DNA from: an uncultured virus (IMG/VR IMGVR_UViG_3300029319_000023)
Lineage: Duplodnaviria > Heunggongvirae > Uroviricota > Caudoviricetes
DNA: 20,000 nucleotides
IMG/VR virus record: IMGVR_UViG_3300029319_000023
Reading direction: 5' to 3' (one strand)
The notes under the pieces are model-generated. The model searched no databases, had not been told where the DNA came from, and saw nothing but the letters and a program-made list of their open reading frames with translations. The position numbers were made by a program, and so were the translations under genes. This document shows, piece by piece, positions 2 through 20,000 of this stretch; position 1 is the stretch's first letter, and the number at the start of each line of letters is the position of its first letter.

Positions 2-2326
2 GCATCTGCAGGTAATGAAACTTATAAGACTACATTTAACTTTAAGTCTCCTGTATTCTGTGCTCCAAACACTGAATTCTGTGTCGTTCTCTTGTCTGAG
101 TCTGATTCTTATGAAGTCTTCCTTGCAAGGATGGGTTCTAAGACACTCAACTTTAAGGCATTAGGATTAGGTCAGAACTCTCAGCATAGTAAACAGTGGG
201 GTGCTGGTTCTCTATTCAAGTCTCAGAACGGTTCTATTTGGACTCCAACTCAGGAAGAAGATTTAACATTCAGACTTAAGAGAGCGAAATTTACAGCTAC
301 CTCTGGTACTGTTTATATGCACAACCCAGATCTTGATGTAAGTAACAACTACATCAGAAGATTAGATCCTGATTCATTCCAAGTCATTTCTAGATCTGTA
401 ACCGTTGGTATTGATACAGTCACAAATGGAACTGTGATGGCAGGTATTCTTACTACTGGTAGGAAGATTGGTGAAGCAACTGCTGCTGAAGGTGGTAGTT
501 CTGGTAGTTCCTATAAGTTTGGTACTATTGAAAGTACAGGTGGTCCTATCGACCTAACATTTGGTTCTTACGCAGGTATTTCTACAGTTGCTATTGGTGG
601 TACTGATTACATCGATGGTCAATATAATAATGTTGATCTATTCGCTGTTACTGGTAATGGAGTTGGTGCAAAAGCAAACATCTTTGTTGAAAATGGAAAC
701 GTAACTGCTGCTGGTGCAACTATTGTAACTGCAGGACATGGTTATGCTGTAGGTGACATTATCGGTATTACAACAGCAGACGCTGGTGGTGCTGGTTCTC
801 AAGCACAGTTGTCAATTGAAGCAACTAGTGGTGTTGATAGATTATTCTTAGAAGATGTACGTGGTAACACCTTTGTTACTAGCGAAAAACTTGTTTACTA
901 CAATGACTCTGGAACAAGAATAGCACTTGGAACTACGACAATTACATTGTCCGCAAGAACTGGTCCTACCTCTAACGAAGGTGACATGATAATTGTTTAT
1001 CTTCCAAACCACGGAATGTATAGTGGATCTAACAAGATTACTATTAGTGGATGTAAGGATCTTGCTGATGCAACACAACTATCTGCAGATGTTACTTCTA
1101 CTAGCACGGTAATTTCGGTTGCTTCTACTGCTGGATATGATACATTTGAAGGAATGCCAGTAACTGCAACAAACCCAGGTTATGTTTTGGTTGACCAAGA
1201 ACTTATTTCTTACACTGGTGTTGGTGCAGGAACATTAACTATCGGCACTAGAGGTGTTGATGGTACAGTTTCTACCCCACATACTCTTGGAGAAGAAGTT
1301 GACTTGTATGAACTACAAGGTGTATCTCTCAGAAGAATTAACACAACTCATGACATTGACCCTTATGAGTTTGATATTGATAACTTCTATATCAGAATTC
1401 AAAGAGATCAAAATGGTACAGACAGAACTGATGATGGATCATTGGTTAACGCTCCACTCCTAAGTTTCGCTGATAGCGGTGCTGCTGGTGGTGATGAAAT
1501 CGATACTACAACTAACTTGTTGTACTCTAGCATCAAACCTAACTACAGAGTTATTAAACCTACTGGTAAGACTTCTGTTACTGCACAAGCTAGAACGATC
1601 ACAGGTACAAGTCCAAGTGGAAATGAAGTCTCTTATGTAGATAAGGGTTATGTGAATATTGATCTTGGTAATGTTAATGAATTTAGTGATGTAAGAATGA
1701 TTGCATCCAAAGTTAACGAAGACGCATATAACACTGAATTATTCAGGAATAAGTCTTTCACAACTGCAATCACATTACAAACAACAGATGAAAATGTATC
1801 TCCAACTATTGACTCTACTGTTGGTGCAACTGAATTTGAATTCTTTAGAATTAATGATCCAGTCAGCAATTACGCACTAGACGGTCGTGTTAACATTAGT
1901 GGAGAAGATCCACACGCATCTGCTTACGTAAGTAAGAATGTTTCTCTTGAAAATGAATCAGTTGCTTTAAAAGTTATTATTGAAGCATACAGAAGTGAAA
2001 CATCTGATTTCCGTGTTGCATATCAACTTCAAACAAGTGCTGAAGGTGGTGCTGCTCCATGGCGTCTCTTCCCTGGCTATGATAACTTGAAAGACACTGA
2101 TGGTAACGGATTAGGTGATCAAGTAATTACTCAATTGAATAATAATGGTCGCCCAGATAGAAAGATCAGACCATCTGCTCCTCTATCCGATGAATTCATC
2201 CAGTATGAGTTTAATGCTCAAGACCTAACTGAATTCACAGGATTTAGAATCAAGATTATGATGTCTGGTACAAATGCTGCTGATCCTCCTAAGTTCAGAT
2301 CAATCAGAGCGATTGCATATACATAA
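2..2326 (+). CDS. Large virion structural protein, C-terminal part (VrlC-like tail/baseplate-associated protein of T4-like cyanophages); 5'-truncated by the window edge
   Basis: The frame of ORF 92..2326 is open back to position 2 (ASAGNETYKTTFNFKSPVF...), so the TTG start at 92 is an artefact. Motifs TTFNFKSPVF, GSLFKSQNGSIWT..QEEDLTFRLKRAKF and C-terminal F.GFRIKIMMSGTN...PP.F..IRAIA are typical of this family. G/T/S-rich beta-repeat segments. Position upstream of g13. Confidence 0.7.
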   Translation, partial: ASAGNETYKTTFNFKSPVFCAPNTEFCVVLLSESDSYEVFLARMGSKTLNFKALGLGQNSQHSKQWGAGSLFKSQNGSIWTPTQEEDLTFRLKRAKFTATSGTVYMHNPDLDVSNNYIRRLDPDSFQVISRSVTVGIDTVTNGTVMAGILTTGRKIGEATAAEGGSSGSSYKFGTIESTGGPIDLTFGSYAGISTVAIGGTDYIDGQYNNVDLFAVTGNGVGAKANIFVENGNVTAAGATIVTAGHGYAVGDIIGITTADAGGAGSQAQLSIEATSGVDRLFLEDVRGNTFVTSEKLVYYNDSGTRIALGTTTITLSARTGPTSNEGDMIIVYLPNHGMYSGSNKITISGCKDLADATQLSADVTSTSTVISVASTAGYDTFEGMPVTATNPGYVLVDQELISYTGVGAGTLTIGTRGVDGTVSTPHTLGEEVDLYELQGVSLRRINTTHDIDPYEFDIDNFYIRIQRDQNGTDRTDDGSLVNAPLLSFADSGAAGGDEIDTTTNLLYSSIKPNYRVIKPTGKTSVTAQARTITGTSPSGNEVSYVDKGYVNIDLGNVNEFSDVRMIASKVNEDAYNTELFRNKSFTTAITLQTTDENVSPTIDSTVGATEFEFFRINDPVSNYALDGRVNISGEDPHASAYVSKNVSLENESVALKVIIEAYRSETSDFRVAYQLQTSAEGGAAPWRLFPGYDNLKDTDGNGLGDQVITQLNNNGRPDRKIRPSAPLSDEFIQYEFNAQDLTEFTGFRIKIMMSGTNAADPPKFRSIRAIAYT

Positions 2327-17226: not shown

Positions 17227-18657
17227 ATGTTAGGCAATGCAAATTATCTAGAGGAGAAGTGGGCTCCTCTACTCGACGCAGAAGGCGTTGAGAAAATCTC
17301 AGACCCACATAGAAGAGCAGTTACTGCTGCTATTCTAGAGAACCAAGAGAAAGCACTTAAAGAAGAAGCAGGTTTACTTCAGGAAGCACCTACTTCTGGT
17401 TTTGGCGGTGCTCTTTCAGGTGGTGCAGACTTTAAAGGTGGTGCACTCACTTCTACTGGTTCACCCACCGCAGGTTTCGACCCAGTTTTAATTTCATTGA
17501 TCAGAAGATCAATGCCAAACTTGGTTGCTTATGACCTTGCTGGTGTTCAACCAATGAACGGTCCTACAGGACTTATCTTCGCAATGAGATCTAAGTTCGT
17601 CAATGACGACGGTTCACTTGGTAACGAAGCATTATTCAATGAGCCAGATACAACTTTCTCTGGTTTATCAACTGCTGCGAACCAATCACTTGGTGCAGAC
17701 TACACTGGTGCTACTGATGGTGGCGCTGCTGTTGGTTTCGGTACTACCGAGCAACAAGGAGCTAATCCTGGTCTTCTTACTCTTAACGCTGATGGCAAGA
17801 GCTACAACGTAGGTCAAGCAATGAGCACTGCTGAGGCAGAAGCACTTGGTGATGCAGGTAACGCTTTCCGCGAAATGTCATTCAGCATCGAGAAGGTTGC
17901 TGTTCAGGCACGTTCAAGAGCGTTAAAGGCAGAGTACAGTTTGGAACTAGCACAGGATCTCCGCGCTATTCATGGTTTAGATGCTGAGGCTGAATTAGCA
18001 AATATTCTCTCAACAGAGATACTTGCTGAAATCAACCGCGAAGTCATCAGAACCATCTATAAGTCTGCTGAGGCAGGTGCTCAGAACAACGTTGCAACCG
18101 CAGGTGCGTTTGACTTAGACGTTGACTCCAATGGTAGATGGTCAGTTGAGAAGTTCAAAGGTTTACTTTTCCAAATCGAGAGAGATGCTAACGCAATCGC
18201 ACAAAGAACTCGTAGAGGAAAGGGTAACATAATCCTATGTTCTTCTGACGTTGCTTCTGCATTAACAATGGCTGGTGTTCTAGATTACACCCCTGCACTT
18301 AATGCTAACCTTAACGTTGATGACACTGGTAATACATTTGCTGGTACAATCAATGGTAAGTACAAAGTATACATCGACCCATTCTCAGGTGGTCAGAACG
18401 CTTCTGGCGCTCAGTACTACGTTGTTGGTTACAAAGGTACTTCACCTTATGATGCTGGACTTTTCTATTGCCCTTACGTTCCACTACAGATGGTAAGAGC
18501 AGTTGGAGAAAACACATTCCAACCAAAAATCGGGTTTAAGACTCGTTACGGTATGGTTTCTAACCCATTCTCTGAAGGAGACTCTGCTGGTGCAGGTCGT
18601 ATCTTCGCTGGTGTTAACAGATACTATAGACGTGTACGTGTTGACAACCTAATGTAA
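17227..18657 (+). CDS. g23: Major capsid protein gp23
   Basis: KWAPLL, AVTAAILENQE, FDPVLISLIRRSMP, GVQPMNGPTGLIFAMRS, SRALKAEYSLELAQDL.AIHGLDAE.EL, YCPYVPLQM, FQPKIGFKTRYG. Probable gp21 maturation site LQE53|A54. Confidence 0.98.
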   Translation: MLGNANYLEEKWAPLLDAEGVEKISDPHRRAVTAAILENQEKALKEEAGLLQEAPTSGFGGALSGGADFKGGALTSTGSPTAGFDPVLISLIRRSMPNLVAYDLAGVQPMNGPTGLIFAMRSKFVNDDGSLGNEALFNEPDTTFSGLSTAANQSLGADYTGATDGGAAVGFGTTEQQGANPGLLTLNADGKSYNVGQAMSTAEAEALGDAGNAFREMSFSIEKVAVQARSRALKAEYSLELAQDLRAIHGLDAEAELANILSTEILAEINREVIRTIYKSAEAGAQNNVATAGAFDLDVDSNGRWSVEKFKGLLFQIERDANAIAQRTRRGKGNIILCSSDVASALTMAGVLDYTPALNANLNVDDTGNTFAGTINGKYKVYIDPFSGGQNASGAQYYVVGYKGTSPYDAGLFYCPYVPLQMVRAVGENTFQPKIGFKTRYGMVSNPFSEGDSAGAGRIFAGVNRYYRRVRVDNLM

Positions 18658-18684
18658 GCGAGATGCTTATATTACTTTTTTCCG

Positions 18685-18711
18685 AGAGGGTGCTTGACAC
18701 CCTCTTTTTTT
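18685..18711 (+). terminator. Intrinsic terminator after g23
   Basis: Stem AGAGGGTG (18685-18692) / CACCCTCT (18698-18705), loop CTTGA, T-tract to 18711. Confidence 0.85.
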
Positions 18712-18721
18712 ATGTTATACT
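18694..18721 (+). promoter_or_regulatory. Sigma70-type (early) promoter overlapping the terminator
   Basis: TTGACA (18694-18699), 16-nt spacer, extended -10 TG-T-TATACT (18713-18721). Confidence 0.75.
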
Positions 18722-18724
18722 ATA
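18694..18724 (+). repeat. Direct repeat copy 1 (terminator/promoter unit)
   Basis: TTGACACCCTCTTTTTTTATGTTATACTATA; 29/31 identical to 19947-19977. Confidence 0.85.
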
Positions 18725-18804
18725 GGAGTCGTAAGTTTTTCGCTACCTATGACTGCTGCATATCCCTTTGATGGTTTCAGATATGGAGGCGATAGGAAAC
18801 CATC
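18724..18804 (+). ncRNA. Candidate structured RNA (two hairpins with possible double pseudoknot)
   Basis: Hand-identified pairings: 18727-18733/18748-18754; 18770-18778/18796-18804 (perfect 9 bp); 18759-18764/18780-18785 (perfect 6 bp); 18740-18744/18788-18792. Begins near the expected start site of the upstream promoter. Confidence 0.4.
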
Positions 18805-18867
18805 TTCTATATAATATGTTCACACCGCTTCGGCACTCTGGACAAACAAACGCTAACGCAAATTAAA

Positions 18868-19932
18868 ATGGATTACACTATTAAACTACAGGACATTGTA
18901 GGTCCTAAAAAACTACCAGGTTTTAATGGGGTTGGAGAAATAGACCTCGTAAAGTATGTAAATACAAAAGTAGATATACCAGAAGGATATTCCTTCAGCA
19001 GTCTAGGTTCACTTGACTTAGATGAAGAAGTAGATGAATTAGATGATGTATGGTCTAATGATGGTGTCAGAGAAGAAGGTAACGCTGACGACAGAATTGA
19101 TTCACTACAAAACAGTTACTCCGTAAATGGTTATAAGACAAAAGATGAACCAGGTATGGGATCAAAAGATCCCAATGGAAAAGAACTACCTGTAGAGGGT
19201 AGGGGTCGAGCAATAGCAGGAAAACGAAACAAGGAAAAACGAATACCTTGGATCAATCTAAAAAAAGATGAACCTGGTGAACTTGCAAGAATTAGTGCGG
19301 GTGTTTTAGCAAACCTTAAACATGACCCTGCTACTAAAGCAACAAGAGAAGACGTTATCACAGCGGGTTTAAAACTAATAGGTGATGGAGAACTAAATCC
19401 AAATGCTGTTGACATAAACACATGGTTAAAGGATAGATTACATATCACCAAGTTCTTTACTCAAAGAAATATCACTCTCATTGTAGATGGTATCATAAAA
19501 AGACACCAAGAAGGTGAGAATGCAGTTCGTATAAAGGAAAGAGCAGCTTGGATGGAAGTCTTAAAGAAAGACTTTAAGATTGAAGTTGATAACAAAACAA
19601 CTTTCTTATTCTCTATGGATTCTGATACGTATTCATGTCGTGCTTTTTGTGAAGCAGTATTAGAACATGGACTATCACATCCAGTAGAAATCATACCTTA
19701 CACAAAAAGAAAATTGCCATCAGAGGCAAGAAAGAAACTGAAAAAGTTCATAACAGATCTTAATACATATGTAAGACTCATGTATAAGACAGTTGGTGAC
19801 AGAAAAGACTGCACATTTAAGAAAATCAATCCATCAGATCATTTCATAATCAAAGGTTGTGTTCCACAGTTTATTGTAGATCATGCGGATGAATGGGATT
19901 CTAAAGTATTGATAGACGTAGAAAACTACTAA
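18868..19932 (+). CDS. Hypothetical protein with divergent ParB/Srx-like N-terminal domain
   Basis: 354 aa. Segment VREEGNADDRIDSLQNSYSVNGY....EP.........LPVEGRGRAIAGKR.....IPW followed by helix..N..H.......EDV follows the ParB-N pattern R...I..L..S....G....P...(D/E)GxxR..A......IP. Recognised by eye only. Confidence 0.55.
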   Translation: MDYTIKLQDIVGPKKLPGFNGVGEIDLVKYVNTKVDIPEGYSFSSLGSLDLDEEVDELDDVWSNDGVREEGNADDRIDSLQNSYSVNGYKTKDEPGMGSKDPNGKELPVEGRGRAIAGKRNKEKRIPWINLKKDEPGELARISAGVLANLKHDPATKATREDVITAGLKLIGDGELNPNAVDINTWLKDRLHITKFFTQRNITLIVDGIIKRHQEGENAVRIKERAAWMEVLKKDFKIEVDNKTTFLFSMDSDTYSCRAFCEAVLEHGLSHPVEIIPYTKRKLPSEARKKLKKFITDLNTYVRLMYKTVGDRKDCTFKKINPSDHFIIKGCVPQFIVDHADEWDSKVLIDVENY

Positions 19933-19936
19933 TTTT

Positions 19937-19964
19937 AAAAAGGGGGTTGACACCCTCTTTTTTT
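19937..19964 (+). terminator. Intrinsic terminator after the ParB-like ORF
   Basis: AAAAAGGGGGT (19937-19947), loop TGAC, ACCCTCTTTTT (one G-U pair), then T-tract; 4 nt after the stop at 19932. Confidence 0.8.
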
Positions 19965-19974
19965 ATGCTATAAT
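19947..19974 (+). promoter_or_regulatory. Sigma70-type (early) promoter overlapping the terminator
   Basis: Perfect TTGACA (19947-19952), 16-nt spacer, extended -10 TG-C-TATAAT (19966-19974). Confidence 0.8.
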
Positions 19975-19977
19975 ATA
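19947..19977 (+). repeat. Direct repeat copy 2 (terminator/promoter unit)
   Basis: TTGACACCCTCTTTTTTTATGCTATAATATA; 29/31 identical to 18694-18724. Confidence 0.85.
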
Positions 19978-20000
19978 TTTGTTGGACGCAACAATGGGTG

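Follow-up and report, generated by a model that had tools for sequence, protein, structure and literature searches.

Structured RNAs in Phages and the Present Locus

T4-like cyanophages infect abundant marine cyanobacteria. The RNA motifs manA (RF01745) and wcaG (RF01761) were described from these phages (Weinberg et al. 2010, PMC2864571), and the RNAs other than tRNAs that are named in the accessible sections of cyanophage genome papers are CfrI, PhotoRC-II, wcaG, manA, glnA, and abiF. The element described here is absent from those sections. It lies in a 20,000-nt stretch of DNA (the window) taken from the contig of a T4-like cyanophage, and comparative sequence data indicate that it is a conserved structured RNA with a genuine fold, made up of a 5' helix (P1) and an H-type pseudoknot of two stems, S1 and S2 (Table 1). 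In common with manA and wcaG, it is an orphan structured RNA of the same phages, and it shares with them its promoter cassettes and tRNA clusters; manA starts equally far from the -10 box and has a similar 5' hairpin, GUUG...CAAC. It differs in that neither model matches it, in that the motifs occur as its separate neighbors, and in that manA can sit inside its P1 loop.

Pseudo-ToxI of phage PhiTE is a pseudoknot RNA that neutralizes a host toxin in trans (PMC3475682). The cyanophage RNA resembles ToxI and pseudo-ToxI as a small pseudoknot with triplex contacts, predicted in its case, whereas ToxI consists of 36-nt units in tandem that its toxin cleaves (PMC3475682) and the cyanophage RNA has a core of about 50 nt, is single, carries a 5' helix, and has no evident cognate toxin. 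Tandem repeats beside a toxin gene, the arrangement of type III antitoxins, were not found; the copies in six complete genomes and in the contig of the window are single, and the downstream genes vary. The putL RNA of HK022, ∼70 nt long and just behind an early promoter, contains a triplex (PMC9378689), and the cyanophage RNA is comparable in length, in its position directly behind a phage promoter for host polymerase (predicted here), and in its predicted triplex. The put RNAs consist of two stem-loops in a V shape with no H-type pseudoknot and are fixed to two early operons; the present RNA does sit right behind a promoter of early type, but its covariation is that of an H-type pseudoknot and not of two V-shaped stem-loops. 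Finally, theta (minimal HDV-like) ribozymes are small pseudoknotted phage RNAs adjoining tRNA genes, with a nested double pseudoknot on the tRNA 3' side (PMC10879173), whereas the cyanophage RNA has a simple H-type knot and lies 2-7 nt to the 5' side of the tRNA in the 141 tRNA-adjacent loci listed. A single nucleotide separates the 5' strand of S2 from the 3' strand of S1 (A in 197 of 198 cores), too short a gap to accommodate the hairpin that is nested in the HDV-like fold.

The g23 Locus and Its Promoter Cassette

The RNA follows g23, whose product shares 69-73% identity with the gp23 proteins of those cyanophages that match it best. The promoter that the first-pass annotation had placed here is indeed present: it matches the consensus at 11 of 12 positions, has an extended -10 box, and has its -35 box embedded in the loop and stem of the g23 terminator. 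Among the family loci listed, the -35 box matches at five or six of six positions in 197 of 270. A terminator with an embedded σ70 promoter recalls the promoter/stem-loop (PeSL) cassettes that shuffle genes in T4-type phages; the likeness concerns the carrier cassette, not the RNA cargo (PMC2839356). A carrier of this type would explain the movement of the RNA between sites. The terminator/promoter cassette is repeated in the window at 19942-19974.

Downstream lies a 354-aa ORF with no significant Pfam or PHROG match. A weak ParB_N lead comes from its third Atlas cluster, 12% of whose members carry PF02195. The second -10-like hexamer, 3' of the RNA, may give this ORF its own transcription start; a similar hexamer is present in P-SSM3.

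Table 1. Features of the window, with the positions of the RNA in two cultured phages
Feature	Position	Strand	Remarks
g23	17227-18657		Pfam Gp23
g23 intrinsic terminator	18684..18711	+	Stem 18684-18706, T run to 18711
σ70-type promoter	18694..18721	+	TTGACA 18694-99, TG 18713-14, TATACT 18716-21
P1 hairpin	18728-36/18745-53 (18728..18753)	+	6 bp, A.C mismatch, 2 bp
P1 loop	18737..18744	+	Variable slot; carries subfamily word UCGCU, possible partner 18788-92 (unproven)
Conserved UGC	18754..18756	+	P1/S1 junction, near predicted 5' end
Stem S1 of H-type pseudoknot	18756-64/18780-88	+	G18758.G18786 mismatch
Loop L1	18765..18769	+	CCUUU
Stem S2	18770-78/18796-804	+	
Loop L2	A18779	+	
Loop L3	18789-95	+	GCGAUAG
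Second -10-like hexamer	18810..18815	+	TATAAT, 3' of RNA; from sequence
354-aa ORF	18868..19932	+	Weak ParB_N lead; neighbor, no fixed partner
Pseudoknot RNA in P-SSM2	144047-144104		
Pseudoknot RNA in S-SM2	142157-142211		

Covariation of the Pseudoknot Core

Folding against shuffled controls, one of the checks that had been suggested, gives a modest, borderline signal for the window sequence alone: z is -1.72, 12 of 200 shuffled sequences fold equally well, and an H-type knot of at least 6 + 9 bp is present in 188 of 2000 shuffles. The comparative data decide. Homologues were gathered by exact and degenerate pattern scans of IMG/VR and metagenome contigs, and loci with fewer than six of seven S1 pairs or four of five S2 pairs were dropped. 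In an unedited MAFFT alignment of 76 distinct cores, 92.4% of cells pair (75.2% when shuffled) and 240 cells have changed on both sides, compared with 88 ± 11 in shuffled alignments and at most 43 with slid partners; kinship can inflate these counts, and the S2 bases are partly fixed by the search pattern. A search pattern that leaves both stems free provides the cleaner test. With this pattern, the full seven S1 pairs are formed in 75 of 78 distinct viral cores and the full five S2 pairs, again, in 75 of 78; seven of seven S1 pairs are also found in 83 of 101 metagenome cores, the remainder of which resemble chance matches. In 198 filtered cores, the pairs with the highest mutual information are the stem pairs, and up to six pair types occur at one stem position, G-U being frequent, which points to an RNA on the + strand.

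Hairpin 2 of the first-pass annotation, which is S2, is thereby confirmed. The helix that it drew between the linker CATATC and the loop word GATATG is also real, only longer than claimed: it extends to the whole of S1 and includes a G.G mismatch. The broader proposal, that a compact non-coding RNA with a pseudoknot heads the transcript of the cassette, holds well, the fold being supported by covariation and the start being predicted.

The UGC at the P1/S1 junction is invariant in the alignment and is present in nearly all of the scan matches listed, the pattern having left it free. CUU in L1 and UUC in S2 are invariant where no pattern fixed either of them, and the distance between the two is 5 nt in 139 of the listed loci, 7 nt in 163, and 6 nt in 2, a spacing compatible with joint growth of L1 and S2. 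Near-invariant positions outside the pattern, counted in the 198 cores, are C18765 (195), A18779 (197), G18786 (197), A18794 (198), and G18795 (196). By analogy with known pseudoknots, CUU is predicted to form three major-groove triples with GAA/UUC, in the core of the window C.G-C, U.A-U, and U.A-U, made by C18766, U18767, and U18768 with 18796-98/18776-78. An extension of S1 by pairing of UGC with GCG was also considered; 3-4 nt would have to span 11-13 bp, which we judge unlikely on geometry.

The same annotation had drawn four helices and regarded a double pseudoknot as the defining feature of the fold. All four can be drawn, but what is conserved is one pseudoknot and a 5' helix, and the second pseudoknot (UCGCU/GGCGA) is limited to one subfamily and finds no support in covariation. 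The loop word UCGCUACC is the mark of that subfamily, occurring in 71 of the 325 loci listed and missing in 254. In the 59 distinct RNAs with this word, the UCGC/GCGA match is intact in 56 and broken on one side in 3, with compensation in none; GCGA or GCUA is retained in the 254 listed loci that lack the loop word, these bases being partly fixed by the patterns. The second pseudoknot is an optional contact at best. It is more plausible in the short-S1 subtype, in which every complete copy carries the loop word (24 of 25 distinct RNAs, the 25th ending at a contig edge). In the subtype of the window, its formation together with S1 and S2 is likewise judged unlikely on geometry, as 3-4 nt would again have to cross 11-13 bp.

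P1 and the Predicted Start of the Transcript

Promoters were chosen blind to pairing, and a strong one lies within 60 nt in 247 of the 314 usable loci listed. In 226 of these 247, at least three pairs form between the strand that starts at the seventh base after the -10 box (spacer 6) and a strand that ends just before UGC; other spacers give such pairing in 0-13 of the 247. The terminal triplets of the two strands covary (GUU/AAC 86, GUC/GAC 71, GUG/CAC 42), and of 66 further loci, 33 pair from the best promoter within 400 nt. On the strength of this fixed spacer, the first base of P1 is most likely also the first base of the transcript, which in the window is the predicted +1, G18728, paired with C18753. 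This agrees with the earlier suggestion of an RNA starting near the predicted +1. Hairpin 1, drawn at 18727-33/18748-54, is real too, although the most likely start at G18728 would leave the pair A18727-U18754 outside the RNA.

The P1 loop is variable across the family: at its shortest it is a tetraloop of 4 nt, and at its longest it comprises modular sequence of about 300 nt. P1 brackets about 300 nt of other sequence in one locus (L501), and in another (L559) a complete manA RNA (186 bits; 351-536, minus strand) lies between the P1 G and the pseudoknot. Nesting of this kind argues that cyanophage motifs regarded as "cis-regulatory" may be free RNAs.

The start of P1 at the predicted +1, the clustering of conserved bases at the P1/S1 junction, the capacity of P1 to enclose manA or a long foreign segment, and the beginning of ORFs about 21 nt downstream, outside the fold, would all suit a cis-acting RNA cap. 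The fold would then bury the 5'-triphosphate end of the transcript and stabilize whatever RNA it heads, be it an mRNA, a tRNA precursor, or an RNA inside P1. We consider such a role doubtful while taking it seriously: there is one copy per genome despite many similar promoters, a plain 5' hairpin like the one of manA, identically placed relative to the promoter, would be expected to suffice, most copies have a short loop, and a terminator or new promoter stands immediately behind the RNA in 12 of the loci listed. If correct, it would represent a new way of RNA stabilization in bacteria and provide a usable scaffold. A more speculative variant, to which we attach little probability, is that the fold docks its own 5'-triphosphate G on the invariant bases, acting as an RNA-encoded cap, possibly an end-modifying ribozyme, that seals the RNA in the P1 loop (manA included) as a long-lived molecule.

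Distribution of the Family

The pseudoknot RNA is carried by at least 325 loci with distinct flanks, in a pattern-driven and non-random sample, and the family is one of structured RNAs of T4-like marine cyanophages. BLAST and covariance-model searches find a single strong copy in each of six complete genomes, P-SSM2, S-SKS1, ACG-2014f, S-B05, SynMITS9220M01, and S-SM2, the first five of which had been chosen for their BLAST matches. A model search of 16 other T4-like marine phage genomes found no copy, so that 1 of the 17 genomes not chosen for a prior match carries the RNA (S-SM2) and it is missing from 16 of the 22 tested. BLAST matches were also obtained in P-SSM5, Bellamy, S-SCSM2R, S-B43, RB11-B, and S-H68. 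The contig of the window has one copy, and one contig has two, 1.2 kb apart (L494, L495).

No convincing bacterial copy was found. In bacterial genomes, 48 exact matches to a 16-nt subfamily word lacked the 3' half without exception, and among 151 genomes from one cyanobacterial class, the model gave four matches of at most 29.3 bits, none of which shows the fold; the search at family level covered one genome, so coverage of the Prochlorococcus and marine Synechococcus hosts is not established. One match of 24.6 bits lies within a long ORF.

Patchy, accessory occurrence would fit an early counter-defense function. It is less easily reconciled with a put-like antiterminator, in which the nascent RNA would bind host RNA polymerase and bring about read-through of cassette terminators. 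The length of HK022 putL, its place behind an early promoter, and its triplex (PMC9378689), together with the terminators that bound cyanophage cassettes, lend this idea some appeal; it is nevertheless improbable, as the fold differs from the two stem-loops of put, as putR works 270 nt from the start, so that pairing from +1 is unneeded for put, and as the cyanophage RNA is mobile among unrelated sites and absent from most of the genomes tested.

Absence from RNA Catalogs

The first-pass annotation could match the element to no hammerhead, HDV, or tRNA consensus, and Rfam gives no match over the element. A search of the window at E ≤ 5 gave three weak, unrelated matches, and the 241-nt region at E ≤ 10 three weak matches centered on the terminator. 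Three sets of homologous loci (20 + 10 + 20) yielded tRNA, manA, wcaG, and one subthreshold match over a tRNA, and nothing else. The wcaG model has no match over the element, its matches being limited to separate sites in three loci (L229, L411, L437), and the riboswitch models for SAM-II/V, preQ1-II, guanidine-III, and NAD-II give no match. We also considered that the long variants might be manA and rejected this: RF01745 does not match over the element and gives nothing above cut-off in five carrier records, whereas true manA copies elsewhere score 82-186 bits. In the literature searched, no description of the RNA was found. The supplements of Weinberg 2010 contain no exact word match to the motif, though gapped alignments can hide words; the searchable supplementary files of Fremin 2023 contain nothing, and two further files might hold the motif; and it is not mentioned in the main text of Weinberg 2017, whose supplement might hold it. 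Without a match in Rfam 15, the pseudoknot RNA is, by sequence comparison, an uncatalogued family among the orphan structured RNAs of cyanophages, and adds to these a widespread family with very strong covariation.

A ribozyme that either cleaves itself or works on the 5' triphosphate it carries might be suspected from the roughly 20 near-invariant bases and a variable helix that tolerates large inserts. In L3, the last strand is preceded by a fixed C and a fixed A with one variable base between them, a pattern reminiscent of the J4/2 strand of HDV. There are also tRNA neighbors, as in the case of theta ribozymes (PMC10879173). Catalysis is nonetheless improbable: no Rfam ribozyme matches, the nested hairpin of HDV is absent, a lone A separating the strands of S2 and S1, and the RNA lies 5' of tRNAs at a variable distance of 2-7 nt, whereas theta ribozymes are described as acting on the 3' trailer.

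Independence from the Downstream Gene

Of the 325 loci listed, 140 have a tRNA as the feature that follows the RNA and 125 have an ORF, these ORFs being unrelated; 9 have a new promoter, 3 have a terminator, 31 have something else, and 17 are too short to tell. The tRNAs, 2-7 nt from the RNA, are mostly Arg (94) and Pro (39) among 141 calls, and a tRNA stands directly behind 109 of 130 short cores and 25 of 155 long cores among the loci listed. Where an ORF follows, the median distance from RNA to start codon is 21 nt.

The clearest comparisons come from close relatives of the window. Two loci (L002, L003) are 97-99.9% identical to it through the end of S2 and then continue into a different gene, and in L003 the order is promoter, RNA, terminator, promoter, gene; in L342, a terminator lies 3 nt 3' of the RNA. 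P-SSM3 agrees with the window in the g23 terminator, the promoter, and the beginning of the ORF, whose N-terminal 111 residues are 85% identical, and lacks the RNA, so that the two represent a clean presence and absence at one site. In P-HM1, that site is held by manA. The gene swaps, the absence of the RNA from P-SSM3, and the tRNA neighbors show the RNA to be independent of the gene downstream, including the ParB-like gene of the window. As one possibility, it had been proposed that the RNA partners or regulates the ParB-like protein encoded downstream. RNA and ORF are adjacent in the window and in L001, but the RNA occurs with that gene in just 2 of 139 loci listed, the ParB identity is itself a lead alone, and the gene without RNA in P-SSM3 largely refutes the idea, which we regard as scarcely tenable.

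The other proposal, a riboswitch-like leader that senses a ligand and controls the next gene, fares little better. H-type pseudoknots with triple helices are the ligand pockets of the SAM-II, preQ1-II, and guanidine-III riboswitches, and the present RNA shares this architecture, its triple helix being predicted. In addition, purM, purH, and pstS-like genes recur downstream, some of these names having been read from protein starts. No expression platform is apparent, however: a Shine-Dalgarno-like word in the 3' strand of S2 was found in none of the 325 loci listed and a terminator within 45 nt in just 3. With a tRNA behind it in 140 of the 325 and downstream genes that share no common pathway, ligand-dependent control is unlikely.

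A Trans-acting Decoy RNA as the Favored Explanation

A single, mobile, accessory copy, a strong early-type promoter, locked ends, and the lack of a fixed neighbor are best accommodated by a stable free RNA, and the tRNA and terminator contexts lead us to prefer a free RNA over a cis leader. The explanation that we tentatively favor, with a probability of about 0.45, is a stable and abundant small RNA that acts in trans by binding a host protein as a decoy. Its target would most likely be an RNA-recognizing enzyme of defense or decay. The neutralization of a host toxin by the phage pseudoknot RNA pseudo-ToxI provides the precedent (PMC3475682).

Host RNA polymerase would start at G18728 early in infection, and the RNA would run from there to about 18804. 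Folding of its first bases into P1 would deprive decay enzymes of a free 5' end; cyanobacterial RNA decay favors 5'-monophosphate ends (PMC10939160). The pseudoknot with its three-layer triple helix would resist trimming from the 3' end. An RNA of 60-80 nt could be freed by an RNase P cut at the following tRNA, by a terminator, or by cleavage in an AU-rich spacer, the last being the route envisaged for the window. About 20 conserved bases would form the protein-binding surface, and the P1 loop would be a tolerant slot for passenger RNA domains.

Some observations sit uneasily with a decoy. The 125 of 325 listed loci in which an ORF follows have the RNA where a cis leader would be, the strict +1 register and the enclosure of passenger RNAs are just as compatible with a cis 5' cap, and two copies occur on one contig. 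In metatranscriptomes, four runs were examined as contigs, one of which has a depth of 17 in bin 18704-97 and none beyond, a signal that may come from the shared promoter/terminator repeat; none of the 24 RNA runs listed contains half of the sequence words of the element. The presence of the RNA in the cultured model phages P-SSM2 and S-SM2 makes its ends, abundance, and partners directly testable. A decoy would point to an unknown RNA-sensing defense or decay step in Prochlorococcus and Synechococcus.

Further Observations

A structured module of ∼120 nt occupies the P1 loop of long variants (L284, L246, L268, L298, L501) and also stands alone, without the pseudoknot core, in P-SSM2 (L415, 56700-56817). 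It has no Rfam match and is probably a second uncatalogued RNA family. Short modules of the P1-loop type are found directly 3' of S2 in five loci (L227, L241, L258, L275, L290), and their occurrence behind the pseudoknot suggests shuffled RNA domains. L610 resembles the locus with manA in P1 (L559) and is cut at its 5' end. In several Synechococcus phages (L437 1420-1555, L413 1330-1550, L443, L446), promoter and P1 are embedded in the 3'-terminal part of the upstream ORF, which places P1 under coding constraint as well. The order pseudoknot RNA, tRNA-Arg, manA, tRNA occurs at L412 1501-1915 and L413 1501-1913 (ACG-2014f, S-H68), and none of the four is annotated in the records of these phages. 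The subfamily loop word is complementary, over 7 nt, to the GGUAGCG stretch of some tRNA D-loops.

In the near-identical phages represented by the window, L002, and L003, the slot after g23 holds three different ORFs of 341-370 aa. At the other end of this slot in the window (19942-20000), the second terminator/promoter cassette is followed at G19981 by a match to the first 20 nt of manA, near-identical to the start of manA in P-HM1 and ending at the contig edge. A small hairpin with the loop GAGAU covers the g23 stop codon of the window (18655-18669). Among the 314 family loci listed, a hairpin with a GAGAUG loop lies ahead of the terminator in ∼20, and the word itself occurs in 30; the hairpin is sometimes preceded by TAAATA, which resembles a late promoter.
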